64,000 nt of DNA, from positions 32,001-96,000 of the IMG/VR virus record IMGVR_UViG_3300037140_000076, one strand, 5' to 3'. Under the pieces are notes generated by a model. That model saw nothing but the letters and a program-made list of their open reading frames with translations, was not told where the DNA came from and ran no database searches. Of the stretch, positions 28,323 through 56,127 are shown one piece after another; within the stretch, counting starts at the first letter, position 1, and every line of letters begins with the position of its first letter. The stretch comes from a virus. The position numbers and the translations under genes were made by a program.

Positions 28323-28347
28323 AATACTTATTTCTAAGGTTTGTCAG

Positions 28348-28902: not shown

Positions 28903-29061
28903 AAAAGTTAAAAAATAAGTCCCTTTCCCTTCACTATCCCAGGGTGGTTAATAAGGACTTATTTTTACGTACGCTGTTTTAGGCTACAGATACCTCATAC
29001 GTAACCATTGCCGTTAGAATATAGACCGATTTATGATACTATACAACGGTTGGATTTTTCG

Positions 29062-29131
29062 AACATCCAAGAGGAATCGAACCCCTGCTTCACCCTACAC
29101 GGGTGCGTCCTCCCACTAGACCATAGATGTT
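29062..29131 (-). tRNA. tRNA-like element with aberrant anticodon loop (identity undetermined)
   Basis: acceptor AACATCTA/TGGATGTT, D-arm, T-arm AGGGG-TTCGATT-CCTCT; anticodon arm CACCC-GTGTA-GGGTG. Confidence 0.5.
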
Positions 29132-29180
29132 GCCATAAACACGTTATTCGGAACACAAAGATAAGTAACTTTTTTGAAAC

Positions 29181-40656: not shown

Positions 40657-42054
40657 TTAAATGTATATTCGCATTATGCTCAATAAGAACCTTTTAAATT
40701 TTACCCTGGTTGTTTTCTCATATGGTGCTATCTTATTGACAGTCTTATACTTAAAAGATAAATCGAAGAAATGAAAAAAATCCTGATTGATTTCACAACT
40801 GTTTTAAAAAAGAAAGATAGATTTACAGATCATGCCGGGGTTGAACATAAGATAAAAGAAGTAACGTATGCCCCCTCCAACGGGACGGTATATATAGAGA
40901 CGACAGAAGGGAAGATGATTAACCTTACTAAAGCGTTGATTAACAAAGATATATTATGTCTACTCAAGAAATGATTCGTTGGATACCTTTAGAAGAATAT
41001 AAAATAATGCAACAATCTGAAGAGGAATGGAAAAAGATGAATTATAGAATATTCATGAGTACTTTTTGGGGTATGGAAATACCTAAACCATTAATAAATA
41101 AAGAGTTATGATTAACACCCTTCTTTGTTTTTTAGGTATTCATAGATGGCATTCCGTTAGAAATGGACCTAAAATCCCTTTTTCAAGATGTAGATATATT
41201 TTTTGTACTCGTTGCGGAAAACAAAAATAACACACTGATAAATAAAGACTTATGAACTTTGCAAAACTCTTCTCTATTGATGACGATACCCAGGTGCTTG
41301 TTAGGCTCGAAGATGGGTTTGATGAAACCACCGGAGAAGAAATTACAAACGTTACTCAAACAACTGAGTACAACGGAGTTACAATGGAATGTTCTAAAGG
41401 ATTCCTGGAAGTAAAAGACGCTGAAGAATATTTTAAAAAGTTCTCCCTGGCTCTTGCCATTACTTTTCATGAGGATGCCCGGAAGGTTATTTTCGATATG
41501 GTGGAGGAAGGCTGATTTGGAATTGTGAAGGTTTTGTTATAATTTTATACCTATGCCTGAATTAACCTATGCCTTTCAAATCCTCACTGCAACTGATCTG
41601 ATGGTCCTTCAAGACGATATGAACGATCTTGGTATATGTGGATACACAGCGGTTGGGGGAGTGACCTATTCCTTCTTTGATCCAAACAGCCCTAGTGGAT
41701 TTACCTACGTCCAGGTTATGAAATTAATAATAAAGAACTTTTAACTTTTTGTTAACTTTAGATTGATTATATTCGCATTATGAAAGAACATAGATCAAAA
41801 CAAATGGGACCTGGAGGCGGTGGATGGCTTTCAGACCTGGAAAGAGATCAACCTATAAAATCAGGAGCAACACCCCTTACATTACCAGGCACCACCTCAA
41901 CAAGGTTTGAAGTTTTCTTTCAATTCAATGATGATGCACCGGTTAGGTTTGCAGAAACAAGAACAGGACTTAGGATAGACCTAACTGAAGATGGTCAAGA
42001 CGTTGAATGGAGGGATGGGGATAAGAGATTTAGAATTTTTTTAAAAAAGAAGAC

Positions 42055-42501
42055 ATGACAAAAATAAAACCAGACGTCACCGAAACTAACCCATTCGTTA
42101 TCTATCCCCCCGATTCCAATGTAATTTTAAATCTTCCAAAACCAAATTCTGTATCTAATTTTGAAAAGGATTTGCTTGAAAAGTTTAACGAATATGATGG
42201 TCCTAAAAGCACCCGTGGTAAAGTACCCGATGAAATTCAACCTCTTAAAGATAAAGAAAATATTTTTCAAGATACCCATGCTATAAACAATTCAATGGTT
42301 TTGCAAAAATTAGGATTTGAAGAAAGATCAGCTACCCAATGGTATCACCCAGTTCTTGGAGATGATATGGAACATAACTGGCTTCATTTTGATACTCAAT
42401 ATGATGATACTGAATCTATTGTACCAAAGATTTATAAAACAGGATTTGTACAAGGTCAGAAAAATATTCGGATGGGTATTAAAAAGGTACTCGATATTTA
42501 A
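42055..42501 (+). CDS. hypothetical protein
   Basis: 148-aa ORF in operon. Confidence 0.6.
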   Translation: MTKIKPDVTETNPFVIYPPDSNVILNLPKPNSVSNFEKDLLEKFNEYDGPKSTRGKVPDEIQPLKDKENIFQDTHAINNSMVLQKLGFEERSATQWYHPVLGDDMEHNWLHFDTQYDDTESIVPKIYKTGFVQGQKNIRMGIKKVLDI

Positions 42502-42843
42502 AAACAACAATTACATGGCAGCTAAAAAAGAAACTAGAAAATCATTTTGTATTACCGCTAAGATTATTATCACAACAAGTATTGAAGTTTATGCTAATAC
42601 GTTTACTGAAGCTGTGGATTTATCAAGAGGTTTAGGAGTAGATAATTTTGTTGAAGTCATTGGTGATCACATTGATAGTGAATTCGGCATAGAAGGTATT
42701 TCTGCTTTTCCGAATACCGCAACACTTTAATTATGTACGAAGACTTATTAAAGGACCCTCCCGACACTGAGGAAGATATTCCAGATATACTTCAACCCCC
42801 AGGCCCCGCTGTTCCGGTGGCTGGATTATGTTTTGCTGAAAGA

Positions 42844-42951
42844 TTATAACAAAACTCAGTGATAATTATCATTGGATTTAGTGATAAAAATAAAATTATA
42901 ACAAAATTTTGTTATAAAATTTGGTAGATTAAAAAATTCTTCTTAGGTTTG
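42844..42951 (+). promoter_or_regulatory. three 22-bp operator-like palindromes plus a TTTG-N20-TAGGTTTG promoter
   Basis: TTATAACAAAATTTTGTTATAA (42896-42917) abuts the -33 box. Confidence 0.7.
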
Positions 42952-42969
42952 TAGTCTAAATGATTTTTT

Positions 42970-43116
42970 ATGGTAGTAGGTATAATAATTGGTTTCGTTG
43001 CTGGCTTTGTAATTGGAGCACTTGTGTTCAGAAACAATACTACAAAAGCTAATGCCGTAATAGCAACTGTTCAGGCAGATACTGCAACCGTAGTAGCTGA
43101 CGCTAAAAAAGTTTAA
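42970..43116 (+). CDS. small single-pass membrane protein
   Basis: MVVGIIIGFVAGFVIGALVFRNN..., 48 aa, directly after the promoter. Confidence 0.6.
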   Translation: MVVGIIIGFVAGFVIGALVFRNNTTKANAVIATVQADTATVVADAKKV

Positions 43117-43147
43117 TCAAATGGGTGGAGACGCTTAAAATATTACA

Positions 43148-43282
43148 ATGCAACAATTTACAATGATAGTGGATAATAGAATTAATGCCGGAGGCGAAAA
43201 TCGTCTTTCAGGGATTCTATTGTAACATCATTAATAATATGTTAAACCTTTAGAACCCTGGATAATAAATCCAGGGTTTTTT
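43148..43282 (+). promoter_or_regulatory. attenuator-like leader 1 (leader ORF, antiterminator, terminator) before tRNA array 1
   Basis: ORF MQQFTMIVDNKN; CAGGGATTCTA (43209) can pair with TAGAACCCTG (43251); terminator AACCCTGGAT-aataa-ATCCAGGGTT-TTTT. Confidence 0.65.
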
Positions 43283-43287
43283 ATTTT

Positions 43288-43359
43288 AGACAATTAGCTC
43301 ATCGGGAGAGCGGAGCCTTTACACGGCTTGCGTAGAGGGTTCAATTCCTTCATTGTCTA
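43288..43359 (+). tRNA. tRNA-Val(TAC)
   Basis: cloverleaf; anticodon arm GAGCC-TTTACAC-GGCTT. Confidence 0.9.
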
Positions 43360-43415
43360 CATAATGACCGTTATAACGGACATTCTCCCCAGGAAATGAC
43401 CGCTATAACAAACAT

Positions 43416-43486
43416 TTTCCTCTCGTTCAATGGAAGGACGACTGCCTTCTAAGCAGTGAATAAGTGTTCGACTCACTTGGGGAAAA
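43416..43486 (+). tRNA. tRNA-Arg(TCT)
   Basis: ACTGC-CTTCTAA-GCAGT; T-loop TTCGACT. Confidence 0.9.
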
Positions 43487-43491
43487 CATAA

Positions 43492-43565
43492 GGCTTGTTA
43501 GCTCAGTGGCCCAGAGCGGGACTTTGTTAAAGTTCGGGTCCTTGGTTCGAATCCAAGACGAGCCT
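43492..43565 (+). tRNA. tRNA-Asn(GTT)
   Basis: GGACT-TTGTTAA-AGTTC; T-loop TTCGAAT. Confidence 0.9.
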
Positions 43566-43612
43566 CAAAATTAATTTGGATATGTCACAAACTTTATGTA
43601 TATTGTGTCATA

Positions 43613-44014
43613 ATGAAAATTTGTACACGATGTAAAGATAAAAAAGAACTATCTGAGTTCTATAAAAGTCCAGGCAGTAAGGATGGTTATCGCATTTATT
43701 GTAAAACATGTTATAGTAAGTTACGAAAGAGGACATATAATTTTCAAAAAGCAAAGAAATTATTTTTAAAAAGTAAATACAAAATAACTTTAGAAGAATT
43801 GGAAGTTTTATTTTTAAAACAAAAGAAAAAATGTGCTATTTGTAATGAACCAAATGAAGAAGTGTCTACTAGAAGTGGGTTACATATAGACCATGATCAT
43901 GTTACAGGAAAAGTCAGAGGTTTACTTTGTAAAAACTGTAATCAATTGATAGGCAATGCTAAAGATAATATAAATATTTTAGAAAATAGTATAAAATATT
44001 TATTATGTTCTTAA
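43613..44014 (+). CDS. endonuclease VII-family homing endonuclease
   Basis: CTRC...CKTC N-terminus; Q...CAIC...LHIDHDH.TGKVRGLLC..CN..IG. Confidence 0.9.
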   Translation: MKICTRCKDKKELSEFYKSPGSKDGYRIYCKTCYSKLRKRTYNFQKAKKLFLKSKYKITLEELEVLFLKQKKKCAICNEPNEEVSTRSGLHIDHDHVTGKVRGLLCKNCNQLIGNAKDNINILENSIKYLLCS

Positions 44015-44811
44015 CATTCACAGAAGAAGGGCATTCGTATGAGTCAATTCCAGCCGTTTCCTGGACTTCTGTGACTAAATTAATAGAAAGCTACTGCAAT
44101 CCTTTTGATGAGGAGGATCAAGCTCTGAGGAGTTCACAGAATATGAATTCAAAATGGTTTGGGATGGACCCAGTGGAGATTATCAAACTCTGGAAGGCTG
44201 AAAACCTTCGTTCCACTGATGCCGGAACCTGGGTCCACAACAAATGGGAAAAAAATGTTAGCTCTTTAAAGCACAAAGAGTGGGAAGGAAAGAAATTAAA
44301 AGTTTTTCCTGGAAAATGGGAAGGAGAAACTAAAATTGCACCGGCCCAGGAACTTGAAGAAGGGGTTTACCCTGAACATATTATATATAATGAAAATCTT
44401 CAGGTGTGTGGACAGGCTGATATTGTTAATGTTAGGGATGGTTTTGTAGATGTAATTGATTATAAGACTAGTAAGGAGATTGAGGACCACTCTTATGGAT
44501 TCAAGTATGGAAATGCGAGTATGATGTTGGAACCGGTGAACCATTTAGAGGATTGCAACCTTTCTCATTATGTTCTTCAGCTTGGTATCTATATGAGGCT
44601 CATCCTGTTAAAGAATCCGGCTCTGAAACCTGGTAAACTGATCCTCATTCATGTAAAAATGGATATTAATGAGCTTGATCAATATGGATTTCCTATCCTA
44701 AAAAGGACAAAAGAAAACGGATATAAAATTAAAAGAACAAAAAATTATAATATAAAATACATTGAGAATGAAGTTCGTAGTGTATTAAAAGATCATTATT
44801 TAAAATTGTAG
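44005..44811 (+). CDS. PD-(D/E)XK (Cas4-like) exonuclease
   Basis: GTWVH, CGQAD, IDYKTS, Y.LQLGIY. Confidence 0.85.
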   Translation: MFLTFTEEGHSYESIPAVSWTSVTKLIESYCNPFDEEDQALRSSQNMNSKWFGMDPVEIIKLWKAENLRSTDAGTWVHNKWEKNVSSLKHKEWEGKKLKVFPGKWEGETKIAPAQELEEGVYPEHIIYNENLQVCGQADIVNVRDGFVDVIDYKTSKEIEDHSYGFKYGNASMMLEPVNHLEDCNLSHYVLQLGIYMRLILLKNPALKPGKLILIHVKMDINELDQYGFPILKRTKENGYKIKRTKNYNIKYIENEVRSVLKDHYLKL

Positions 44812-44956
44812 GGTGGCGAAATTGGCAGACGCAACCGCTTGTCTCGCGGTCGTGGATAAGGAAATAGATAGTAGATAGACGGTTGACCAGCAATGAATTA
44901 ACTTCTTTTGTCTCCTGTTGAATCCCCACTTAATGGTTCGAATCCATTTTCTACAG
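44807..44956 (+). ncRNA. tRNA-like RNA (GTC loop) with a ~88-nt variable arm
   Basis: acceptor TGTAGGG/TTCTACA-G, D-arm GCG-AAATTGGCAGA-CGC, ACCGC-TTGTCTC-GCGGT, T-arm AATGG-TTCGAAT-CCATT. Confidence 0.65.
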
Positions 44957-45076
44957 CAATTGATCAGTATGTTGCAGATAGAATCTGATCTGGCCCTACG
45001 CACTGCAAAGCGTTGAGGGAGCGCGTCCGGGATAAGTAGACCTGGTAAGACTACGCTAGGAAAAAGTCTTTTATAT

Positions 45077-45151
45077 TGCGGGATAGAGTAAATGGATAAC
45101 TCGAAGGTCTCATAAGCCTTGTCTATGTCGGATCGTACCCGGCTCCCGCAA
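45077..45151 (+). tRNA. tRNA-Met(CAT) (initiator-like; Ile2 not excluded)
   Basis: TGCGGGA/TCCCGCA; AAGGT-CTCATAA-GCCTT. Confidence 0.8.
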
Positions 45152-45262
45152 CGGTGGTGTCTTGAACGTAGTCCTGGGAAACAACAAGGGAAGTACAACT
45201 AACGGGTTACTGAAAGGGCTTTGTAGTTCAAGAATTAAACAGGTAAAGCTGGCCGCTACTTT

Positions 45263-45336
45263 GCGCCATACGCATTCCGGTAGTGTGCCTGGCTTCCAAC
45301 CAGGATGAGTCGGTTCGATTCCGACATGACGCACCA
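45263..45336 (+). tRNA. tRNA-Gly(TCC)
   Basis: CCTGG-CTTCCAA-CCAGG; encoded CCA. Confidence 0.88.
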
Positions 45337-45416
45337 GGACAAGACGGAGGTTCGAATCCTCCCGGCTATGTATCCGTAATTGGGTGACGCAGTAGTTTAG
45401 TGGTTAGAATATGTCC
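45337..45416 (+). ncRNA. circularly permuted tRNA-like RNA (T-arm, closed acceptor, D-arm)
   Basis: GGACA...GGAGG-TTCGAAT-CCTCC...hairpin...TAGTTTAGTGGTTAGAAT-A-TGTCC. Confidence 0.55.
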
Positions 45417-45419
45417 AAT

Positions 45420-45491
45420 GCTCCTTTCGTCTACTGGCTAGGACATCACTCTTTCCAAGTGATTAAGACAGATCGAAACTGTCAGGGAGTA
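45420..45491 (+). tRNA. tRNA-Glu(TTC)
   Basis: TCACT-CTTTCCA-AGTGA. Confidence 0.82.
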
Positions 45492-45497
45492 CAATAT

Positions 45498-45572
45498 GGT
45501 ACATTAGGGGAGTCCGGAGTCCCTGCCTCACTGTCTATGAGGAGATCATCGGTTCAAATCCGATATGTACTG
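45498..45572 (+). tRNA. tRNA-Asp(GTC)
   Basis: CCTCA-CTGTCTA-TGAGG; discriminator G. Confidence 0.88.
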
Positions 45573-45629
45573 CAAGATGGAACGTTTAGTACGTCTGAAC
45601 ACGAAATAATGGTTCCCCATCTTTTCTAT

Positions 45630-45704
45630 ATTCGGATAACTCAGTCTGGTCAGAGGGCGACTCTTATAAGGTCGCAGTCAGTGGTTCAAATCCACTTCCG
45701 AATA
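45630..45704 (+). tRNA. tRNA-Ile(TAT)
   Basis: CGACT-CTTATAA-GGTCG. Confidence 0.85.
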
Positions 45705-45776
45705 CTGGTTCGTATAAAGGCACGAATTGTTCGAAAGATTCGTGTAAATACGTAATTTGCAAATTGCAAATTATAC

Positions 45777-45850
45777 TGACCTATGGCGCAGCTTGGTAGC
45801 GCAGCACTCTGATAAGGTGAAGGTCCCTGGTTCAAATCCAGGTGGGTCAA
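45777..45850 (+). tRNA. tRNA-Ile(GAT)
   Basis: GCACT-CTGATAA-GGTGA; canonical D- and T-arms. Confidence 0.9.
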
Positions 45851-45893
45851 CTCTGTTCATATTTTTTCTCTGTTCACGAAAAGTGAACAACCT

Positions 45894-45964
45894 GGGCCAG
45901 ATCCCGAAGGCAGGGCATCTCGCTTGCACCGAGAATGAAGCGGGTTCGATTCCCCATGTGTCCA
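45894..45964 (+). tRNA. tRNA-Ala(TGC), irregular acceptor stem
   Basis: TCTCG-CTTGCAC-CGAGA; G3:U70 present. Confidence 0.7.
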
Positions 45965-46035
45965 CTTTTTTCCCAAATTTGGAAATGTGAAAAATTTTCA
46001 CTATATTGAATTCTTCACATCCAAATTTAAATAAT

Positions 46036-46533
46036 ATGTTAAAGTTCATCCTAGACAACCCAGAGAAGACACTTTTCGGTAAGATTAGAAACATTGGTTT
46101 TGTATTTGCACTGGAATTAATTTACTTAAGTATCATTGTTTTTTTATTGAAACAACTAGATCCCTTTGATCTATATACTCTTATGCATCAATATAGTTTA
46201 CCACATGTTATAGACGCTAATGCTATTGGGATATTTTTCTTTGCTTGTATTTGGGCACCCCTATGGGAAGAAGCGGCTTTCAGGTATGCTCCTATAACGA
46301 TTGCCAAGAACTTTGGACCTCAATTTTTGTTCCCGGTTATAATAATTAGTAGTGTTTTATTTGGTTGGGGTCATGGATCTGGACCTGTTAGTCTTCTTAT
46401 TCAGGGAGTTGGGGGATTCTTGTTTTCCCTGCTTTATATTAAAAATGGTTTTAGTTATAAATCTTCAGTAACTGCCCACTTCCTTTGGAACCTTTCTCTT
46501 ATGTTCCTCCTTCCTGTTTTAATAGCAAATTAA
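46036..46533 (+). CDS. CPBP (CAAX/Abi) family intramembrane metalloprotease
   Basis: APLWEEAAFR, FGWGH, HFLWN; multiple TM segments. Confidence 0.88.
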   Translation: MLKFILDNPEKTLFGKIRNIGFVFALELIYLSIIVFLLKQLDPFDLYTLMHQYSLPHVIDANAIGIFFFACIWAPLWEEAAFRYAPITIAKNFGPQFLFPVIIISSVLFGWGHGSGPVSLLIQGVGGFLFSLLYIKNGFSYKSSVTAHFLWNLSLMFLLPVLIAN

Positions 46534-46584
46534 ATTTTGTAATATCAATTCTTTTAAGTACTTTAGGGTCATAATTTAGTTATT

Positions 46585-47364
46585 ATGGCCCTAATTGCTA
46601 TGGCGGTATACTCAACTGAGGAGAACGGAAAAAATGAATATCTGGATAAAACTCTTCAATCATTGGAAGAGACTGTAGATTTTACTAAACATCGTCTAAT
46701 TCTATCTGTTAATGCTTATACAGCAGAAACTCTTTTGATATTCAGAAGATTTAAAGGCATGTTTGAATTGATTTTCAATAAAGAAAATCTTGGAACCGCT
46801 GAAGCAATTAACCTTGCTTGGAAAGATCAATGGCCGGGAGAAAATCTCATTAAGATGGATGATGATGTTGTCATAAATGTTAATGGATGGGTTGATCGCA
46901 TGGAAGAAGCTATTCAGAGAGATCCAACGATAGGTCAATGTGGTCTAAAAAGAAGAGATTGTACAGAAACTCCCTGGAATCCCGACCCCTTTTATAAATC
47001 AAAACTTGAAATGCTTCCTCACTCCCCCGGTGAGAAATGGATTGTAGTAGAAGAAGTATCTCACGTTATGGGGACTTGTGTCATGCACTCTGCTGCACTA
47101 CTTCACAAAGTAGGATACCTTTATCAACCAAAACTTTATGGATTTGATGATTCGTTTATGAGTCTTCGGTCCCGAATTGCGGGATTTAGAAATGTATTTT
47201 TGCCTGGTATAGATATTGAGCATATTGATAGAGGAGATACCGGGTTTCAAAAATGGAAAGAGAAACATGCTGGAGAGTGTTGGCAAGAATATATGCAAGT
47301 GGTAAGAGATTATACATCAGGTAAAAAAAGCGTTTATTATAATCCATTCGAAAATGATAAATGA
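46585..47364 (+). CDS. glycosyltransferase family 2
   Basis: NLGTAEAIN, KMDDDV, YGFDD...R...GF.N...IEH. Confidence 0.85.
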   Translation: MALIAMAVYSTEENGKNEYLDKTLQSLEETVDFTKHRLILSVNAYTAETLLIFRRFKGMFELIFNKENLGTAEAINLAWKDQWPGENLIKMDDDVVINVNGWVDRMEEAIQRDPTIGQCGLKRRDCTETPWNPDPFYKSKLEMLPHSPGEKWIVVEEVSHVMGTCVMHSAALLHKVGYLYQPKLYGFDDSFMSLRSRIAGFRNVFLPGIDIEHIDRGDTGFQKWKEKHAGECWQEYMQVVRDYTSGKKSVYYNPFENDK

Positions 47365-48058
47365 TACAATAGTTCTTACTGCAATATATCATGAGTTTTG
47401 GGGAACAGAACAGTTTAGAAAATCTGTTGAGAGAGTAGGTCTGGATGTTTATAATGTATTTCCTGAAAACACCCCATATAGAGGAAACGGTTTTATTTAT
47501 CAATACTTTTACAAAGCCTTTTTAGATCTTAAAGATAAATATAAAACAGTTATTTATTCGGATGGAGCAGATACAGTTTTTCAAAAAGCATTTGTACCAC
47601 CAACTGATAGAATAATTTATTCTGTTGAAAAAGCAATATGGCCTCCTGCCGAACGCTTCCCACATCTTAAAGTTCTTTATGATAACTATTATAACAAACA
47701 CTGGCGTAGAAATGATTGGCCTTGGAAATATTTGAATGGGGGAAACTGGTGTGGTCCCATTCATCTATTAATTGAATGGTATGAACGATACGGATTGAAA
47801 GATTTGACAGGAGATATAAATGGTCAGAGAGAGCAAGCCGAAGCTTTTATGAAAGCAGATGCAGATGGTTTTCCAATTAAGTTCGATCATAATTGCGAAT
47901 ATTTTCAGACAACAGGTTTTGAAAATCAAGGAGATTTCAGTTTAGCGGAAGATGGAAAATCAATTATAAATAATTTAACAGGGACGATTCCTTGCGTTCT
48001 TCATGGGAACGGGCGAACTCCGATGAATGCCATATATAATAGATATAACGTACAATAA
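47354..48058 (+). CDS. PLOD/LH3-type glycosyltransferase domain protein
   Basis: YSDGADTVF, EKAIWP, YLNGG..G, D..CEYFQT, PCVLHGNG. Confidence 0.75.
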   Translation: MINDTIVLTAIYHEFWGTEQFRKSVERVGLDVYNVFPENTPYRGNGFIYQYFYKAFLDLKDKYKTVIYSDGADTVFQKAFVPPTDRIIYSVEKAIWPPAERFPHLKVLYDNYYNKHWRRNDWPWKYLNGGNWCGPIHLLIEWYERYGLKDLTGDINGQREQAEAFMKADADGFPIKFDHNCEYFQTTGFENQGDFSLAEDGKSIINNLTGTIPCVLHGNGRTPMNAIYNRYNVQ

Positions 48059-48059
48059 A

Positions 48060-49115
48060 ATGACGAACAAAGAAAAAGCAAAACGACAAAGAGACCGAAG
48101 AAAAACCTATTCATTGTCAAAAAGAAAAAAAATAGCAAAGCAGGTGAAGGCGTATGCCGAAGCAAATAAAGAAAGACTTTCTTTTTTAAAAGCAGAAATG
48201 TATAGAATAAATAGAGAGTATATTTTACACTTCAAAGCAACACATCCTTGTGTAATTTGTGGACAGACTGATCCTTTCGTTTTAGACTTTGACCATTTAG
48301 ATCCTTCTAAAAAGGAAGCAACGGTTGCAAATATGTTAGGTAGAACAGCTTCTCTAGAAAAAATAAAAAAAGAGATAGCCAAATGCCAGATATTGTGTGC
48401 TAATTGTCATAGAAGAAAACATTTTTATGAAAAGAACAAATACAATTTTAAACAAAATATTGTTTTAATCGGAGGCGGTAATCATGTTCAGTACTGTATT
48501 GATATAATTAAAAAACAAAACAAATACAATATTGTCGGTATCATTGATTCAGTTAAAGATATTGGAGAAATTGTATACGATTATCCTGTCATAGGAAGAC
48601 AAAAAAATATTGTTGAACTTTCAAAACAATATGGGTTTGAAAGTGGTATAATTACTGTTGGAGATAATTGGGCAAGATATAAAATATATGGAGATATTAT
48701 TGAGGCTTATCCATCATTTATGTTTGTAAACGCAATTCATCCTTCAGTATTAATAGGCAATAATGTAAAGATAGGTAAAGGAGTAATAGCAATGGCGGGT
48801 GTAATATTTAATCCTGGAGCAAATATTGGAGATTTTACTTTCTTTGCAACAGGTGCGCAAGTAGAACACGATTGTATAATAGAACATTTTGCAAGTGTAT
48901 CAGCGGGGTCTATTCTTGGTGGTCATGTTCATATAAAAGAGTTTGCTGCTATTACTCTAGGGGTAACAATAATTGATCGTCTTACTATTGGATGGAATAC
49001 AGTAATTGGATCAGGGTCTCTTGTAACAAAAGATATAGATGATAATGTGTTGGCATATGGAAGCCCTGCGAAAGTAATAAGAATAAGACAACAAGGAGAA
49101 AGATTTTTAAAATAA
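48060..49115 (+). CDS. HNH domain fused to a NeuD/PglD-family sugar acetyltransferase
   Basis: N-terminal CVICG..D..VLDFDH...CANCHRR; C-terminal IGGGNH, AIHPS, hexapeptide repeats, GSPAK. Confidence 0.85.
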   Translation: MTNKEKAKRQRDRRKTYSLSKRKKIAKQVKAYAEANKERLSFLKAEMYRINREYILHFKATHPCVICGQTDPFVLDFDHLDPSKKEATVANMLGRTASLEKIKKEIAKCQILCANCHRRKHFYEKNKYNFKQNIVLIGGGNHVQYCIDIIKKQNKYNIVGIIDSVKDIGEIVYDYPVIGRQKNIVELSKQYGFESGIITVGDNWARYKIYGDIIEAYPSFMFVNAIHPSVLIGNNVKIGKGVIAMAGVIFNPGANIGDFTFFATGAQVEHDCIIEHFASVSAGSILGGHVHIKEFAAITLGVTIIDRLTIGWNTVIGSGSLVTKDIDDNVLAYGSPAKVIRIRQQGERFLK

Positions 49116-49120
49116 TAAAT

Positions 49121-49912
49121 ATGTCACCATCCCACGCAATAGAATTAAACCATAGAGGTTATACTATTATACCAAATTTGATACCGCCTATTATTGTTGA
49201 TGGATTGAGATATGCGTTGAACTTTTCATTTGATAAACACAGACAGATACAAATTGATAATAATAATGATATAGTTACGGAAGGCGTTGCTCTACATGTT
49301 TTATTAGATAATAGAAGATTTATTGAATTCTTACAATATCTTATGTTTGATATTAAGTTGTATTCCTTTCTGGAAGAAAATTATTTTAAATCAAAATTCA
49401 TATTGAATTCGATGAGTGGCTTGAATAACTTACCAAACCAACCAAACTTTTCGTCCATAGTTCACCGTGATTTGAGATTTTATACTGGCGAAATACCAGT
49501 CATGATAAATGCCCTTGTGATGGTTGACGAATTCACTGAAGATAATGGTCCCACCTTGTTATTACCATATTCTCATATTGATTTCGAAGAAAAACCAACC
49601 AATGAATACTTTCGAAGAAGTTCAGTGAAAGCTCTCGGTGAAGCCGGTAGTGTTTTATTATTTAATGCAAACGTTTGGCACGCATCTAGCTTAAATACTT
49701 CTCGTAACGGAAGAAGAGCATTACCAATAACATTCACTAAATCACTTATAAAGCAGTTATTGGATTATCCCAGGGCTTTAGGATACGATAGAATGGAAAG
49801 CTTTAGCGAACCAATGCAACAGCTTCTTGGGTATCATGCCCGTGTACCAGCCAACTTAGATGAATGGTATCAACCTTTTGATAAACGATTTTATAAAAAA
49901 AACCAAGATTAA
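49121..49912 (+). CDS. PhyH-family Fe(II)/2-oxoglutarate dioxygenase
   Basis: GY.II.N, HRD, DEFT.DNGPT.LLPYSH, GSVLLF...WH....N.S...RR. Confidence 0.88.
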   Translation: MSPSHAIELNHRGYTIIPNLIPPIIVDGLRYALNFSFDKHRQIQIDNNNDIVTEGVALHVLLDNRRFIEFLQYLMFDIKLYSFLEENYFKSKFILNSMSGLNNLPNQPNFSSIVHRDLRFYTGEIPVMINALVMVDEFTEDNGPTLLLPYSHIDFEEKPTNEYFRRSSVKALGEAGSVLLFNANVWHASSLNTSRNGRRALPITFTKSLIKQLLDYPRALGYDRMESFSEPMQQLLGYHARVPANLDEWYQPFDKRFYKKNQD

Positions 49913-50170
49913 AATAAACCATATGCCAATATTAATTTCTCGAAAACAGAATATAGTTCGATCATATACTTTTGAACTTAATCCAATAGAAACTCAAAAA
50001 TTTGAAGATGAGATTTTGAGTAATTTTTGGGATGCAACCAAAATTCCTGAAGACGAAAGAGCAGAGTTCAAAGTAACGTATACTATAGATTTTTATAAAA
50101 AACCAGTAGAAGAAGAACCCCAACCCCAGGATGGGTCACATATTATACTAGGATTACCTTCTATCTAATA

Positions 50171-50340
50171 TTTGGTAATTTCAATTATTTTACATATATT
50201 TGTTTTATGAAACATATCAATTCATATTATTCACTGAGTCTACTCTTATCGTCTTACGATACGGACCTGGGATAATATTGAATTAACCGAACTGATTCGG
50301 AAAAGTTATTACCCTGGGATTTTTATCCTGGGGTTTTTTG
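50171..50340 (+). promoter_or_regulatory. promoter plus attenuator leader 2 before the Leu/Ser/Tyr tRNA array
   Basis: TTTG-N20-TATATTTG; leader ORF 50207-50275; terminator ACCCTGGGAT-tttt-ATCCTGGGGT-TTTTT (50311-50339). Confidence 0.8.
50207..50275 (+). CDS. leader peptide MKHINSYYSLSLLLSSYDTDLG
   Basis: 12 consecutive Ser/Tyr/Leu codons matching the downstream tRNAs. Confidence 0.75.
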   Translation: MKHINSYYSLSLLLSSYDTDLG

Positions 50341-50344
50341 TTTT

Positions 50345-50418
50345 AGGGATGTGCTGCAATTGGTAGATAGCTACGCCTCAAAAGCGCATGTGTGTGGGTT
50401 CGAATCCCTCCTTCCCTA
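50345..50418 (+). tRNA. tRNA-Leu(CAA), short variable region
   Basis: TACGC-CTCAAAA-GCGCA; T-loop TTCGAAT. Confidence 0.78.
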
Positions 50419-50447
50419 CTAAAAGCGTTACTAACGCTTTTCAGTAT

Positions 50448-50527
50448 ACCTTCGTGACTTATACGAAATGGCACAGTTACCGGTCTTAGAAACCGGGTCC
50501 TTGTGGGTTCGACTCCCACCGAAGGTA
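50448..50527 (+). tRNA. tRNA-Leu(TAG)
   Basis: CCGGT-CTTAGAA-ACCGG; ACCTTCG/CGAAGGT. Confidence 0.82.
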
Positions 50528-50564
50528 CAATGTTTCCCTTATTAATGAGGTAAACAATTTATAA

Positions 50565-50644
50565 CCCTCTGTGGCTTATAGAAATAGGTACACTTAACCG
50601 ACTTAAAATCGGAGCTTGTCATGGTTCGAATCCATGCAGGGGGA
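50565..50644 (+). tRNA. tRNA-Leu(TAA), weak D-arm
   Basis: CCGA-CTTAAAA-TCGG; CATGG-TTCGAAT-CCATG. Confidence 0.75.
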
Positions 50645-50649
50645 CATAC

Positions 50650-50736
50650 GGAAGGCCCCAGTTGACTGAGGTACACGGTCCTGAACACCGCTAGGAGGCT
50701 AATACCCTTGTAAGAGTTGGACTCTCTTGCTTTCCG
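50650..50736 (+). tRNA. tRNA-Ser(TGA)
   Basis: GGAAGGC/GCTTTCC-G; CGGT-CCTGAAC-ACCG; long variable arm. Confidence 0.78.
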
Positions 50737-50854
50737 CTTTATATCTTTTAACATATAAAATCAGTAATATATTACCGATTATATCTAATAACGTATAATA
50801 AGGTAGAATATTTTGCAACAATCGGCAATTTATTACCGATTTTGCCGAAAGTTT

Positions 50855-50938
50855 GGAAAGTTAATTAGCAAGAGCTAACCCTCCCCGCTAAGGAGTGGGA
50901 CCGGGAAACTGGTTGTGGTTCGTGTCCACAACTTTCCG
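50855..50938 (+). tRNA. tRNA-Ser(GCT)
   Basis: GGAAAGT/ACTTTCC-G; CTCC-CCGCTAA-GGAG; long variable arm. Confidence 0.8.
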
Positions 50939-50986
50939 CAAGAGGAAACATTTGGAAGTTTCCTCTTTATTTCGTATGTTTGTAAA

Positions 50987-51433
50987 ATGAAAAAGATATG
51001 TTCAAAATGCAATATTGAAAAAGAAGTACAAGATTTCAATAAACGCACAAACAGTAAAGACGGATATGATCCAAGATGTAGAACTTGTACAAAAGAACGA
51101 GATGTTTTAAGATATACTAAAAATCCCAAACTTTTTAAAGAAAGGGCAAAAGTTAAAAACACTTTTATAAGAGATAGAAACAGACAATTTTTAATTGAAT
51201 ATTTAATTGATAAATCATGTATTGATTGTGGAGAAACCGATGCTGTTGTATTGGAGTTCGATCATATAGAACCTTCAACAAAAATTGATTGTATTTCAGA
51301 AATGATTCCACGATCAAGTATTGAAAATATTAAAACTGAATTAAATAAATGTGAAATAAGATGTGCAAATTGTCATAGAAGAAAAACAGCTAAACAATTT
51401 GGCTGGAAAAGAAAACACCTGGAATTATGTTAA
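50987..51433 (+). CDS. HNH homing endonuclease
   Basis: CSKC...CRTC; CIDCGE...LEFDH...CANCHRRKT; own promoter at 50951-50982; start moved to MKKIC. Confidence 0.88.
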   Translation: MKKICSKCNIEKEVQDFNKRTNSKDGYDPRCRTCTKERDVLRYTKNPKLFKERAKVKNTFIRDRNRQFLIEYLIDKSCIDCGETDAVVLEFDHIEPSTKIDCISEMIPRSSIENIKTELNKCEIRCANCHRRKTAKQFGWKRKHLELC

Positions 51434-51457
51434 GATTAGATAAAACTTTACTCTTAT

Positions 51458-51528
51458 TGATTGAATACCAGGGCAGTAGGCACTGTCTGTAAAACAGAGG
51501 CACGTAGGTTCGAGTCCTACTCAGTCAA
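51458..51528 (+). tRNA. tRNA-Tyr(GTA), short variable region
   Basis: CTGT-CTGTAAA-ACAG; GTAGG-TTCGAGT-CCTAC. Confidence 0.75.
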
Positions 51529-51532
51529 CAAA

Positions 51533-51751
51533 TTATAACTGAATTTTGTTATAAATTTGGAAATTTGAAAAAGTATTATTAAGTTTGCAGTTAAGATTAT
51601 GAAACAGACTATCAACACGCGATTTTTTTGGCATCAACCGACCCCTCAAGGTCCAAGGGCTAAAGTTATGCGTGATACAGATATAGGTTAAATAATCTCT
51701 TTTCTGCTTGCAACTTTTCAACCCTTGATTTTTCTAAACCGAGGGTTTTTT
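51533..51751 (+). promoter_or_regulatory. operator, promoter and attenuator leader 3 before the Pro/Thr/Phe/Gln/His/Arg/Trp tRNA array
   Basis: 22-bp palindrome, TTTG-N20-TAAGTTTG, leader ORF 51599-51691, terminator AACCCTTG...CGAGGGTT-TTTT. Confidence 0.8.
51599..51691 (+). CDS. leader peptide MKQTINTRFFWHQPTPQGPRAKVMRDTDIG
   Basis: 11 consecutive codons TRFFWHQPTPQ matching the downstream tRNAs. Confidence 0.75.
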   Translation: MKQTINTRFFWHQPTPQGPRAKVMRDTDIG

Positions 51752-51755
51752 ATTT

Positions 51756-51831
51756 CTAGTAATGGAGGAGTCCGGCCATCCTCGCGTGCCCTGGAAGCAT
51801 GAGAACCCAGGTTCAAATCCTGGTTACTAGA
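51756..51831 (+). tRNA. tRNA-Pro(TGG)
   Basis: CGTGC-CCTGGAA-GCATG. Confidence 0.85.
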
Positions 51832-51836
51832 CAAAT

Positions 51837-51908
51837 TCCTCTTAAGCTTTAATGGTGAAGCTCCAGTTTTGTAAACTGGTGAATGGGGATCGTTACCTCA
51901 AAGAGGAT
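51837..51908 (+). tRNA. tRNA-Thr(TGT)
   Basis: CCAGT-TTTGTAA-ACTGG; atypical T-loop ATCGTTA. Confidence 0.8.
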
Positions 51909-51992
51909 CGAAGCCGGTTACCAAAATGTAAAAAAGCCGCCAGAACGTGTCTGGTTACTTGTTAAGACAAGTTGTAAAAAAGTTTGGGTTAT

Positions 51993-52067
51993 GTGTCTTG
52001 GGCAGGTCTGGTGACATTGCATCCGTTTGAAGAACGGACTAACAAGGTTCGATTCCTTGAGGATACG
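51993..52067 (+). tRNA. tRNA-Phe(GAA)
   Basis: TCCGT-TTGAAGA-ACGGA. Confidence 0.82.
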
Positions 52068-52072
52068 CTTAT

Positions 52073-52144
52073 TCCTGGATCGTATAACGTGTAGTACAGC
52101 CGTCTCTGACACGGTTAGCAATTGTTCGACTCAGTTTCCGGGAA
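52073..52144 (+). tRNA. tRNA-Gln(CTG)
   Basis: GCCGT-CTCTGAC-ACGGT. Confidence 0.82.
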
Positions 52145-52149
52145 CTTAA

Positions 52150-52220
52150 ACCCCTTTAGCATAAAGGTAATGCTGGTGGCCTTGACCCACCAGAAGTTCG
52201 GTCGGTACGAGCAGGGGGTT
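52150..52220 (+). tRNA. tRNA-Gln(TTG)
   Basis: GGTGG-CCTTGAC-CCACC; atypical T-loop GTCGGTA. Confidence 0.75.
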
Positions 52221-52222
52221 CT

Positions 52223-52292
52223 GTGAATCTAGTTCAATGGTAGAACGGCTGGCTGTGAACCAGGCAATTAGGGTTCGATCCCCGGTTTCACA
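52223..52292 (+). tRNA. tRNA-His(GTG)
   Basis: CTGG-CTGTGAA-CCAG; D-arm GTTC-AATGGTA-GAAC. Confidence 0.8.
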
Positions 52293-52338
52293 CAACGCAT
52301 GAATTTTTAATAAAAATTCATGCAAAATATTAACATAA

Positions 52339-52410
52339 CCTCCTTTCGTTCAACGAATAGGACCTCTGGCAACGAACCAGAAAATAAAGGTTTGATTCCT
52401 TTAGGGAGGT
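52339..52410 (+). tRNA. tRNA-Arg(ACG)
   Basis: TCTGG-CAACGAA-CCAGA. Confidence 0.8.
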
Positions 52411-52415
52411 CAATT

Positions 52416-52484
52416 ACGTGCCAGGCTAAGGCAGCCAAGCAAACTCCAAATCTGTAGGAGATAGTTCGATTCTATCGGTGCGTG
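52416..52484 (+). tRNA. tRNA-Trp(CCA)
   Basis: loop CTCCAAA; GATAG-TTCGATT-CTATC; imperfect anticodon stem. Confidence 0.7.
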
Positions 52485-53048
52485 CAAATTATAACAAAAA
52501 GCAATTATAATTACTTTTTGTGATAATATTCACACAAAATTTTGTGATAAATGTTGGAAGTGTCAAAAGTATTGTTTTACTTTGCACCCAACTTTCACCA
52601 GTAAAGGACACGCCACCACGAAAAAACAATGATATGAAGTGGCGCAACTACGTCTTGGCTTTTTTTGGGGGAACCTACGGAGGGGGGCCTCACCCCTCTC
52701 ATATTATTGATTTATAATACGTTAAATGATTACCGGGTAATTTACTGGGCCTGGTAAAGCTTATAATTTGGTTATGTGCTTTGAATTACATATATTTACA
52801 GAGGTAAAAAGCACAAAAAATATAAAAAGAGATTCAAGGGGATCATTTAAGATATTACCATCACAAAAATTCCTATCTGGTTATAATCAAAAAACGTAAT
52901 CTGCGTCCATTTAAAACGTTTAAGCAGATGGCAGTGAATTAGGAAACACTGTTGCCCGGTGGTATAAAAGATGCAATTTATTGCATCTTTTTTTATTTAA
53001 CATAGTCTTAACTTGGTTTTATAATAAAAAACAGTTACATTTGCAAGT

Positions 53049-53396
53049 ATGAGAGCGTTGAAGATAGAAAAAAAGACTGATTCGAAAACTCAACAGATAA
53101 AGCTTGTATTATCAATCATTTGTCTATTGAATAATATTACTCTCTCAGAAACAGATTATATATCTCTTGCTTTTTTTATTCAGTATAAAATGAGCCACAA
53201 AACCGATGATTTGATAATCAAGAGTGGGGTGGTCAAGAACATGGACGTTTTAAGAAACGTTAAAACCAGGTTATGTAAGAAAGGATTTTTAAAAAGAGAT
53301 CCTAAAGAATACAAAACCTATGATTTGAACATGAGTGCGGGGGAGTTTAATTGGGAAGACAATGATATTCGATTAATTATAAAACTCAATAATTGA
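53049..53396 (+). CDS. hypothetical protein, possible winged helix
   Basis: promoter TACATTTG upstream; LRNVKTRLCKKGFL. Confidence 0.65.
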   Translation: MRALKIEKKTDSKTQQIKLVLSIICLLNNITLSETDYISLAFFIQYKMSHKTDDLIIKSGVVKNMDVLRNVKTRLCKKGFLKRDPKEYKTYDLNMSAGEFNWEDNDIRLIIKLNN

Positions 53397-53746
53397 AAAA
53401 TATTGACTATATAATTTTGAAGACCTCCAGGGACATGGATATTCCTAAAGAAAAGGTTAAGATAATAGTGGATACCTATTGGGATGGAGTGTATAAAAAA
53501 CTTTTAAATTTAGATTCTACAACTGTTTTTATAAGGAATGTGGGGCTGATAACAATAAGTAAATTTAAATTAAGAAAGTTTATTTATAAATTTATTGATA
53601 AAATAAGATTTTTAAATAAAGGAGATAATTATTCTGAACAACAAAAACAAAAACTCAATCCTCTTTATATTAAAAAATTGAGGAAAGCTCTTTCTCAAAG
53701 AAACATTATTGCTAAAGACTACGCTAAAAAATTTGGAAACACATGA
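53393..53746 (+). CDS. HU/IHF-like DNA-binding protein
   Basis: I....S....IPKEKVKIIVDTYW...VFIRNVG.I pattern; position upstream of terminase. Confidence 0.5.
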   Translation: MKNIDYIILKTSRDMDIPKEKVKIIVDTYWDGVYKKLLNLDSTTVFIRNVGLITISKFKLRKFIYKFIDKIRFLNKGDNYSEQQKQKLNPLYIKKLRKALSQRNIIAKDYAKKFGNT

Positions 53747-54132
53747 GTTTAAGAAAAACTTTTGGTGAGTATTTGGACATGGTGAAGAATGGTTTTAAAA
53801 ACAAAGATAAGATCATTGAAGCAATGCAGGTCTCTGCTATGATAAAGAACGGGAAGATTGGAAATGGTTTGGAGGTTACTAATGAGGCTGTTGCTGAAAT
53901 ACTTAAAAGGAAAGATATTTGTGCTGAGTGTCCTTTCAATAGTAGAAACACAAATAAAGAAACTTATAAATCTAATTTACCCTGGGAGCATTGTACTCTT
54001 TGTAAATGCAGGATAGGATATGATGATAGCAAAGAATATTGTTTATCTTGTGTATGTGGAGCCGAAGCCTGGAATGAAATGAATCCTGATATGGAACCGA
54101 TGGAAGTGAAATGGACAGCATTTAAAAACTAA
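53743..54132 (+). CDS. Cys-rich Zn-binding phage protein
   Basis: RKDICAECPF...CTLCKC...CLSCVCG. Confidence 0.7.
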   Translation: MSLRKTFGEYLDMVKNGFKNKDKIIEAMQVSAMIKNGKIGNGLEVTNEAVAEILKRKDICAECPFNSRNTNKETYKSNLPWEHCTLCKCRIGYDDSKEYCLSCVCGAEAWNEMNPDMEPMEVKWTAFKN

Positions 54133-55235
54133 AAATAAATATTATGTGCGTAGTTAGTATGGTAGGAGATCATTACTCCGATAAATTTAAGGATGATTGG
54201 TATAAAAGGTTTGTACCTTGGACTCCTCCTTCTACTTCCCCTTATACGCCAAATCCTTTGAGTATACCAACATTTATTCCAATGGCAACAAAGGAAGAGT
54301 TTGATGTTTTAAAGAAAGAAGTTGAAGAAATGAAAAAACTTTTAATTAGAGCAAAGATATACGATGAAAAAAACAATGAACCAGATTGCGAAATAGATGC
54401 CAAGATAGAGCTTCTTAAAAAGTTTGCAGAGTTGGTTGGTATAGACTTAAGTGACATTTTTAAAAAAACAACATGAAAAAAAGCACAAAGATTATTTTAT
54501 TTGTAATATTTCTTGTAAGTATCCTTTTTTATAGTATCTTTGTATCAGCACAAAACCCAATAAAGAAGTTTCATCCTGCGACTTATGAATCTGATAGTGT
54601 TGTTTATGTTCGTGGTGATCAAACTATTTCTGTAAATGATAGCATTGATGTAATTTTTACAGATACTGCAAACTTAATAAGAATTGTTAATATAACTAAA
54701 AAAACAATTCTTAATGTTGAAATAGTACACGCGGTACGTTCAGAAGTTATTGAATCATATAATGAGAAAGGAGAAAAAGAAAATTTAACTGTAGGTTGGT
54801 TTTATTGTTTAGTAAACGATCAAGAGCAAATGGTATTTACAACAATATCTCTTCAAGATGGAGAGATCGCGGGGGTTGGTATAGGCACCGAAACATATTT
54901 TACAGTCATGTCATTAAAAAGAAAGAAACAATACGATAAAAAACTTAAATAAACAGTATGACCACAGAAAGAACGCTTCCAGGTAAGCCTGATAAGCAAA
55001 GAATGCAGACCACACAGCAGATTTTTCATAATCTTCTGGAGATCGTGGAACTTTATCCTCAGTATTCTGTGGCCCAACATGTGGCTGCAATCAGTCGAAG
55101 AAAAAGTTCAACCGGTAAAGATTTATTTCATTGGTCTGATGATGAACTTCTTAAAAAGATCGAAGCTCACAAGACAGAACTCGAAGGAGAAGACATTATG
55201 AATTATGATGATGGTGAAATTGATTAAAATATTTT

Positions 55236-55592
55236 ATGACCATAAAGAAAACGTTTTATATAGACATTTATAGTTGTAATGTGCATGTAACGGCGGCTGA
55301 TGATGTAAGACGATCAATAAATTATTATTTAAAAAAACACGGAGAAAAAATCATAGAGTATGATGTAGAAGGACTTTTTTTCGTTCCTATAGATCAAGTT
55401 TCTGATTATTATTTATTTTTTAATCTTAAAGGTTTAGATGTAAATACTTTGAATCATGAAATATCTCATCTTATTGAAGAAATTTTAATACATCGTCATA
55501 TTAAAGCATCAGGAGAACAGAGAGCGTACTTACACGGATCTACATGTGAAAGAATATATAATTTCTTTAAAAAGAAAAAATGTATTAAATAA
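55236..55592 (+). CDS. HExxH motif protein
   Basis: LNHEISHL...EQRAYL. Confidence 0.6.
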   Translation: MTIKKTFYIDIYSCNVHVTAADDVRRSINYYLKKHGEKIIEYDVEGLFFVPIDQVSDYYLFFNLKGLDVNTLNHEISHLIEEILIHRHIKASGEQRAYLHGSTCERIYNFFKKKKCIK

Positions 55593-55593
55593 C

Positions 55594-55669
55594 GGCCAGG
55601 TACCCAATGCTGGACGCGGGGTTAGTCTGCAAAACTTACTTAACACCAGTTCGATTCTGGTTCTGGTCT
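55594..55669 (+). tRNA. tRNA-Cys(GCA)
   Basis: GGCCAGG/TCTGGTC-T; AGT-CTGCAAA-ACT; ACCAG-TTCGATT-CTGGT. Confidence 0.8.
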
Positions 55670-55681
55670 CAAAAAACAATT

Positions 55682-56125: not shown

Positions 56126-56127
56126 TT

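Follow-up and report, generated by a model that had tools for sequence, protein, structure and literature searches.

The window analyzed here is a 64,000-nucleotide (nt) stretch of viral DNA (IMG/VR record IMGVR_UViG_3300037140_000076, positions 32,001 to 96,000) and is part of a 112-kb phage contig (G+C content, 35%). It carries three arrays of transfer RNA (tRNA) genes, each preceded by a short leader open reading frame (ORF), whose codons correspond to the tRNAs downstream, and by an intrinsic terminator that abuts the first tRNA. The contig encodes a large terminase (TerL), a portal protein, a DNA polymerase, an RNA ligase, and a transfer-messenger RNA (tmRNA). The DNA runs that contain the phage are labeled as peat and permafrost metagenomes (no RNA run was listed among its holders), and its nearest named relatives by terminase are Leptolyngbya phage Lbo-JY46 (41% identity) and Cellulophaga phages phi4:1 and phi17:2 (28%), together with crAss-like phages.

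Seventeen tRNAs were called on the + strand between 43288 and 52411 (ARAGORN, default settings; Rfam), and six weaker, degenerate ones were added with relaxed ARAGORN settings and by alignment to the tRNAs of relatives. Their window coordinates are as follows.

43288-43566, + strand: array 1, first part, tRNA-Val(tac), Arg(tct), and Asn(gtt) (ARAGORN, Rfam)
45077-45965, + strand: array 1, second part, tRNA-Met(cat), Gly(tcc), Glu(ttc), Asp(gtc), Ile(tat), Ile(gat), and Ala(tgc)
45895-45965, + strand: Ala(tgc), at the relaxed ARAGORN threshold only
50345-50939, + strand: array 2, tRNA-Leu(caa), Leu(tag), Leu(taa), Ser(tga), and Ser(gct)
50457-50528, + strand: Leu(tag), below default (relaxed ARAGORN or alignment to relatives)
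50565-50645, + strand: Leu(taa), anticodon fixed by alignment to the tRNAs of relatives
about 50649-50737, + strand: Ser(tga), anticodon fixed by alignment to the tRNAs of relatives
50855-50939, + strand: Ser(gct), below default (relaxed ARAGORN or alignment to relatives)
51458-51529, + strand: tRNA-Tyr(gta), the last member of array 2 (ARAGORN, Rfam)
51756-52485, + strand: array 3, tRNA-Pro(tgg), Thr(tgt), Phe(gaa), Gln(ctg), Gln(ttg), His(gtg), Arg(acg), and Trp(cca)
52416-52485, + strand: Trp(cca), at the relaxed ARAGORN threshold only

Several of the tRNAs between 50345 and 51529 score under the Rfam and ARAGORN defaults. The Leu and Tyr tRNAs there are just 72 to 75 nt long, seemingly lacking the long variable arm that bacterial class II tRNAs have, and both Ser tRNAs apparently carry C, not U, at position 33.

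The leader ORFs, each with an unbroken control run, lie upstream of the terminators.

43148-43225, + strand: leader ORF 1, 25 codons, control run at 43163-43201
50207-50275, + strand: leader ORF 2, 22 codons, control run at 50222-50257
51599-51691, + strand: leader ORF 3, 30 codons, control run at 51617-51649

The run of leader 2 comprises 12 codons, exclusively for Ser, Tyr, and Leu, and that of leader 3 comprises 11 codons for all of Thr, Arg, Phe, Trp, His, Gln, and Pro; an earlier sequence-only reading of this DNA had claimed that these two leaders list only, and all of, the amino acids of their arrays, as we find. That reading had limited the listing to leaders 2 and 3. It extends to leader 1, in which 13 codons cover all nine identities of array 1 (Met, Ile, Val, Asp, Asn, Arg, Ala, Gly, and Glu), a match that requires array 1 to extend beyond two inserted ORFs to 45965. 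The correspondence reaches the codon level: the Arg codon is AGA in leader 1, ahead of Arg(tct), and CGA in leader 3, ahead of Arg(acg), and leader 1 carries both ATA and ATT, matching Ile(tat) and Ile(gat).

Whole-set runs of at least the observed length were found at the three leaders alone across six frames of the 112-kb contig. Against random amino acid sets of equal size (5,000 sets, with all three frames in the 250 nt upstream scored), P was 0.0006 for leader 2 and 0.0004 for leader 3. A run that simply mirrors the codon preference of the phage was considered and dropped, since 18 of 34 run codons are the phage's top codon and the mean relative synonymous codon usage is 1.16. Within each family the run draws on rare as well as common codons (among them CGA and more than one codon each for Leu and Ser), which fits a test of the decoding range of each isoacceptor and not a mirror of codon preference. 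Contigs from four peat and permafrost DNA runs contained no variants in the leaders, a result that is uninformative on selection within the population.

Terminators, antiterminators, and predicted folding

Between each control run and its array lie a segment (region 2) able to pair with the 5′ arm of the terminator and the terminator itself.

43208-43216, + strand: region 2 of candidate attenuator 1, pairing with the terminator 5′ arm (P = 0.01 against shuffles)
43252-43287, + strand: intrinsic terminator 1, 12-bp stem (43252-43280) and U-tract, −17 kcal/mol, abutting tRNA-Val
50264-50271, + strand: region 2 of candidate attenuator 2, overlapping the end of the leader ORF
50311-50344, + strand: intrinsic terminator 2, 10-bp stem (50311-50334) and U-tract, −14.3 kcal/mol, abutting tRNA-Leu
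51654-51659, + strand: region 2 of candidate attenuator 3 (P = 0.005 against shuffles)
51720-51755, + strand: intrinsic terminator 3, arms at 51720-51727 and 51740-51747 and U-tract, −9.9 kcal/mol, abutting tRNA-Pro

The hairpins are canonical, with GC-rich stems of 8 to 12 bp followed by 6 to 10 U residues, and those of relatives are built likewise. The U-tracts end at 43287, 50344, and 51755, in each case the base preceding the first tRNA. The first tRNA therefore starts 7 to 10 nt past the stem and directly at the end of the U-tract (0 nt), which differs slightly from the earlier claim of about 5 nt past the terminator.

Folding was predicted for the nascent transcript up to the terminator loop, with the RNA covered by the ribosome masked (the switch of leader 2 was analyzed by hand). 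With a ribosome stalled early or midway in the run, region 2 was free for pairing with the terminator 5′ arm in all three leaders; with the ribosome at the stop codon, the terminator 5′ arm was free and the terminator could form, again in all three. In naked RNA, region 2 of leaders 1 and 2 was sequestered against the run, equivalent to a trp-like 1:2 hairpin, and the 1:2 hairpin of leader 3 varied with the assumed 5′ end. The full three-state switch was reproduced by none of 300 dinucleotide shuffles of leader 1 and by none of 300 of leader 2. The sequence-level predictions of leader-peptide attenuation, as the sequence-only reading had proposed it, held in silico for anatomy, a competing antiterminator, and dependence on ribosome position.

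Leaders and arrays in related phages

Relatives were collected by TerL alignment, which yielded 80 IMG/VR loci, 10 of them with tRNA arrays upstream of the terminase; closer TerL relatives in Logan/JGI contigs (66 to 77% identity) lay outside the comparison. The alignment was needed for distant relatives, as a single-protein TerL search in IMG/VR returned only a near-identical contig (L001). Protein searches in IMG/VR with the neighboring PhyH and PD-(D/E)XK genes returned only the near-identical contig and contigs without tRNAs, and a distant blastn search of INPHARED phages with the array 1 stretch (window 43100-46100) as the query yielded short tRNA matches only. Junctions at which a terminator abuts a tRNA recur in the IMG/VR array contigs, and the ORFs that precede them track the arrays.

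The closest comparison is with L001, whose array 1 has extra Lys(ttt) and Lys(ctt) genes before Val. Its leader 1 is identical to that of the window up to a breakpoint within the run, after which a Lys codon follows; past the breakpoint, both region 2 and the terminator are different and still pair with each other. In L028 and L038, the Asp and Asn tRNAs have moved to the Pro array, and the leader of that array has Asp and Asn codons. The run of L027 is limited to Pro, Gln, and His, the only three identities of its array, and a run in L047 covers 13 of the 13 identities that follow. Lbo-JY46 and L023 have Cys and Lys tRNAs in the first array and Cys and Lys codons in its leader. Lbo-JY46 also has an array orthologous to array 3, and the leader there holds the same seven amino acids with the order changed. 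Composition was kept and residue order was not among orthologous leaders, which speaks against conservation of either a peptide or an RNA motif.

The cultured phage phi4:1 (NC_021788.1) has three leaders, at about 87065-87133, 88022-88108, and 89771-89869, with U-tracts ahead of tRNA-Pro, tRNA-Ala, and tRNA-Tyr. The run of the first consists of exactly Gln, Arg, Leu, His, Glu, and Pro, ahead of an array of Pro, Glu, Gln, His, Leu(tag), Leu(taa), and Arg(acg), and all of its codons are cognate. This grouping, with Leu and Glu placed beside Pro, Gln, His, and Arg, is unlike that of the window, and the leader tracks the phi4:1 grouping.

In a fully automated statistic (frame-free longest in-set run at 25 automatically called junctions of 12 phages), the listing gave a Fisher P of 7e-30 against random sets of equal size, a value combined over relatives of shared ancestry. 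The cognate leader-array pairing ranked first in seven of the eight phages with at least two leaders; the eighth is the window phage, with a tie from a false junction call. Nearly all run codons (226 of 233, in the 12 phages) are readable by a tRNA of their own array. Among arrays with a single Arg isoacceptor, the Arg codons agree with its anticodon in 10 of 11 cases (AGA in arrays with tct only, CGN in arrays with acg only), and where an array has both Arg(tct) and Arg(acg), its leader uses both codon types. Concordance between leaders and homologous arrays had been set in advance as a test of the sequence-only reading, and it was found in 12 phages that split their tRNAs differently, at the level of both amino acid and codon.

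Region 2 and the terminator arm diverge in sequence among the phages, and their complementarity is kept. The antiterminator was more stable than dinucleotide shuffles at 19 of 23 junctions (Fisher P = 1e-21), with the four that failed including three in which the automatic terminator call had failed (window leader 2, L027, and array 3 of L028). Region 2 starts a median of 4.5 nt past the run, within the ORF, and at most junctions the stop codon lies 21 to 33 nt ahead of the terminator arm. A 1:2 hairpin was found in just 6 of 24 junctions overall, which suggests that an untranslated leader would read through in most members and that termination would need a ribosome that finishes the run in time.

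Farther afield, the tRNA blocks of phiCbK are preceded by annotated terminators, and its leaders are enriched in the expected residues; the match is much weaker, and we take it as a hint only of wider spread.

Two annotated genes of phi4:1 (L019; NC_021788.1), entered together at L019 3990-4109 and 6118-6219, coincide with these elements. The coding sequence gp075 (hypothetical protein) is the leader ORF of the second array, and gp076 overlaps an ARAGORN-predicted tRNA-Ser(tga) at L019 6113-6196. In Lbo-JY46 (L020; PP438436.1, positions 117000-125312), the promoters of the tRNA arrays have the Bacteroidota form TTTG/TAnnTTTG and the recorded host is cyanobacterial; the terminase groups with those of Bacteroidota phages, and the recorded host may merit a second look.

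Promoters, inserted genes, and other RNAs

Promoters of the Bacteroidota type (TTTG, 17 to 22 nt, TAnnTTTG) number 12 in the window against 3.9 expected, a count reached by none of 100 shuffles. The arrays are flanked and interrupted by the following features.

42920-42951, + strand: Bacteroidota-type promoter before a 48-codon ORF (pattern match)
42970-43116, + strand: 48-codon hydrophobic ORF upstream of leader 1 (no Pfam family)
43613-44811, + strand: two ORFs inside array 1 (Pfam)
44806-45076, + strand: structured RNA region with a tRNA-like start (acceptor and D arm), an insertion of ~80 nt, and a T-arm end
50171-50202, + strand: promoter of the leader-2 unit (pattern match)
50951-51433, + strand: HNH-like ORF (50987-51433) that separates Ser(gct) from Tyr, preceded by its own promoter (50951-50982)
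51556-51587, + strand: promoter of the leader-3 unit (pattern match)

A common upstream design had been described for the three arrays. Its ORF, antiterminator strand, and terminator are present at all three and its promoter at leaders 2 and 3; the scan for the Bacteroidota-type pattern found none belonging to leader 1, for which the nearest match (42920-42951, ahead of the 48-codon ORF) probably serves the unit. The −7 box of the leader-2 promoter ends 4 nt upstream of the ATG, so that the leader-2 mRNA would be leaderless or nearly so.

Small hydrophobic ORFs of 37 to 48 codons stand directly ahead of a leader ORF in the window (42970-43116), in L026 (5540-5653), and in L027 (185-313). In the latter two contigs they overlap the leader ORF by ATGA, and the two ORFs may be translationally coupled. 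An AT-rich repeat, "attataac ... ttttgttataaatttgg", occurs just upstream of array-flanking promoters (window 42900-42930, 51530-51560, and 52486-52560) and may be a phage-specific regulatory site.

The two ORFs inside array 1 are an endonuclease VII/HNH-type gene (43613-44014), absent from L001, and a PD-(D/E)XK nuclease-like gene (44005-44811; Pfam), and the second half of the array lies 1.5 kb downstream, beyond them. The HNH-like ORF in array 2 is missing at the corresponding place in relatives such as L023, and in the window phage tRNA-Tyr may be transcribed from the HNH promoter too. Homing-endonuclease-like genes of two kinds, endonuclease VII type and HNH-like, thus occur within the arrays, and a PglD-like acetyltransferase between the arrays (48027-49115) carries another HNH motif as a fusion. 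Pfam assigned the ORFs between and beside the arrays to nucleases, glycosyltransferases, an acetyltransferase, PhyH, and a CAAX protease; no DNA-binding repressor was among these ORFs in the Pfam scan, and no search aimed at XRE-type repressors was made.

Relaxed ARAGORN calls on the structured RNA at 44806-45076 conflict (Glu with an intron, or Leu), and it may be an intron-containing or otherwise unusual tRNA. Its first ~150 nt (44806-44955) are kept in L001, where tRNA-Met is directly next; the window version is ~120 nt longer.

The tmRNA lies at 28347-28705 (− strand), with an ARAGORN-predicted tag peptide of 26 residues. A second tRNA-Thr(tgt) nearby (29061-29130, − strand) has a Bacteroidota-type promoter at 29156-29187 and no leader ORF. 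Inspection of the two lone tRNAs, Cys (55594) and Thr (29061), found a leader at neither. A dATP/dGTP diphosphohydrolase-like gene with an NT5C-like domain, which hints at modified DNA metabolism, and the RNA ligase (460 residues), which could serve tRNA repair, are entered together at window 8710-9573 and 6959-8341 (both − strand).

Proposed attenuation of tRNA arrays and its alternatives

Given the observed anatomy, statistical match, covariation across relatives, and in silico switch, each tRNA array is quite probably under the control of a ribosome-mediated transcription attenuator. Transcription would start at a phage promoter, with a leader ORF of 22 to 30 codons as the first feature of the RNA, and codons 5 to 18 would form a test run of codons read by the downstream tRNAs. 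A G-rich region 2, ~4 to 5 nt past the run, could pair with the 5′ arm of the intrinsic terminator. When decoding is fast, the ribosome would move onto region 2 and then to the stop codon, the terminator would fold, and transcription would halt; when decoding is slow at any codon of the run, the ribosome would lag, region 2 would capture the terminator arm, and RNA polymerase would enter the array. The mechanism would be a kinetic race between ribosome and RNA polymerase, in which a shortage of any single listed tRNA would suffice for the array to open. The tRNAs would be released from the read-through transcript by RNase P, and the new tRNAs would speed decoding and close the switch. A tRNA product that relieves the stall would make each unit a codon-specific negative-feedback homeostat. 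As we have adjusted the reading, the quantity sensed would be the total decoding rate, from host and phage tRNAs together, hence a homeostat and not a shortage alarm alone. Leader translation and termination efficiency we infer, and the physiological trigger would be host tRNA shortage, tRNA cleavage, host shut-off, or a mismatch with phage codon usage.

Several points weigh against this reading. Most tRNAs are represented by just one or two codons, which leaves the sensitivity uncertain; classical attenuators usually carry more control codons per sensed amino acid. The three-state switch of leader 3 was matched by 26 of 300 dinucleotide shuffles. Because the gap between run and region 2 is only 4 to 5 nt, a ribosome stalled at the end of the run (the last one or two codons, including the Lys codon of L001) would partly cover region 2, and these codons may sense poorly. 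Six tRNAs fall below default thresholds and are known through relaxed settings or comparison with the tRNAs of relatives. Inserted ORFs, of which at least one has its own promoter, precede parts of arrays 1 and 2, and these parts may escape leader control; the structured RNA at 44806-45076 could conceal a tRNA absent from the list of leader 1. The relatives share ancestry, so that the combined P values overstate independence; the differences in tRNA grouping are separate events.

The listed codons might be sensed with an output in processing or stability, the position of the ribosome controlling RNase access or precursor maturation and not read-through. In favor of this account, no base separates the U-tract from the mature 5′ end of the first tRNA, and RNase P would thus have to cleave directly beside the hairpin. 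We consider it unlikely: the hairpins have the form of canonical intrinsic terminators, and they face a competing antiterminator strand that is conserved, outperforms shuffles, and would be superfluous in an element for processing alone.

The sign of control might also be reversed, so that leader translation protects the transcript (from Rho or from terminator folding), stalling lowers tRNA transcription, and tRNAs are made only during healthy translation. Such an arrangement is very unlikely, as region 2 lies inside the ORF and the stop codon 21 to 33 nt before the arm, so that a ribosome completing the leader would remove the antiterminator and favor termination, and as a leader that lists the codons of its own array suits feedback and not feed-forward control. 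It does draw on the predicted folding of the untranslated leader into the antiterminator in most relatives, by which translation is clearly the variable input.

It is hardly credible that the ORFs encode functional microproteins, or are chance ORFs beside ordinary terminators, with a coincidental match to the tRNA set. AT-rich DNA does hold short ORFs, and leader B of phi4:1 has been annotated as a hypothetical protein (gp075), but the runs are unique in the genome, the match holds across junctions at the P value given above, the codons track the anticodons, and orthologous leaders conserve a composition that tracks the array and not the order of residues.

Of similarly slight probability is a T-box-like RNA with multiple specifiers, in which the codon run would bind tRNA anticodons directly without translation: the run triplets are complementary to the anticodons of the downstream tRNAs, but every run lies within an ATG-to-stop frame and at a conserved distance from the terminator, wobble and four-box codons are used in a way that fits ribosomal decoding, no T-box-like acceptor-binding bulge is evident, and the leaders matched no T-box or other riboswitch family in a permissive Rfam scan of window 42000-56500. 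The only hit of that scan in a leader, a sub-threshold greA-leader match on leader 1 (36.7 bits against a cutoff of 60), was set aside and looks like a generic likeness to terminators.

Control by ribosome-mediated attenuation has well-known cellular counterparts. Leader-peptide attenuators that sense several amino acids control the enterobacterial ilvGMEDA and thr operons, and others are trpL, hisL, leuL, and pheL; the aminoacyl-tRNA synthetase operon pheST is attenuated by the pheM leader. The ilv and thr type shares with the phage leaders a short translated ORF (translation being predicted here), control codons, an intrinsic terminator, an exclusive antiterminator that depends on ribosome position, and the sensing of several amino acids by one leader. 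The ilv and thr attenuators regulate biosynthetic enzymes, whereas the phage leaders precede tRNA genes, list 3 to 13 identities (mostly once or twice each) that match the isoacceptor anticodons, have a product that would act directly on the sensor, lack a 1:2 hairpin in most relatives, and are phage-borne in a Bacteroidota-type setting. The phage units therefore fall outside the narrow trp/his/ilv class, as the genes downstream are tRNAs and the only ORFs in the arrays are nucleases, and in silico they have the parts of a ribosome-mediated attenuator in the general sense (short ORF, clustered control codons, intrinsic terminator, and competing antiterminator). The pheST/pheM system resembles them in that leader-peptide attenuation acts on a gene of the translation apparatus and charged tRNA is sensed, and differs in its single amino acid, protein product, and chromosomal location. 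T-box riboswitches likewise sense tRNA status through a terminator/antiterminator switch upstream of translation-related genes, but they bind one uncharged tRNA directly and are untranslated. Papers related to the leader-peptide attenuators of amino acid operons include PMC3082878 and PMC4046918.

The nearest published case found is the trn operon of Anabaena sp. PCC 7120, a long tRNA array that is silent until translational stress and is repressed by TrcR (PMC8421152, PMC10272220). It too is an accessory tRNA array activated when translation is impaired; it differs in being controlled by a protein repressor with no codon listing, and the words attenuator, leader, and terminator are absent from both papers. 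Invasion by homing endonuclease genes, as by the endonuclease VII and HNH ORFs here, is paralleled in the tRNA gene cluster of phage T4 with its SegB homing endonuclease (cited in PMC8421152), for which we found no description of a leader-peptide attenuator. Full-text literature searches returned no publication, on phages or on cells, in which tRNA genes are controlled by leader-peptide attenuation; the sequence-only reading likewise knew of none.

We regard it as fairly likely that phages of several lineages place blocks of tRNA genes under multicodon "decoding meters" that are on while the tRNA pool is insufficient and close themselves, which would be a new class of attenuation target and a built-in remedy when starvation, shut-off, or anticodon nucleases deplete the tRNAs of the host. 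If so, leader-peptide attenuation would extend to RNA genes and to as many as 13 amino acids at once, with Bacteroidota-type expression signals. The correspondence supplies a sequence rule for annotating transcription units within phage tRNA arrays, and compact, codon-programmable sensors of tRNA availability could be possible for synthetic biology. Since phi4:1 is cultured with its host Cellulophaga, experiments are feasible. To our knowledge, little has been established about the timing and mode of expression of phage tRNA genes or about the reason for their carriage; codon usage matching, host tRNA degradation, and escape from anticodon nucleases have been proposed. If the attenuation reading is true, the phage would measure the decoding of specific codons in real time and dose its tRNAs accordingly, and the proposed reasons for carriage would become directly testable.

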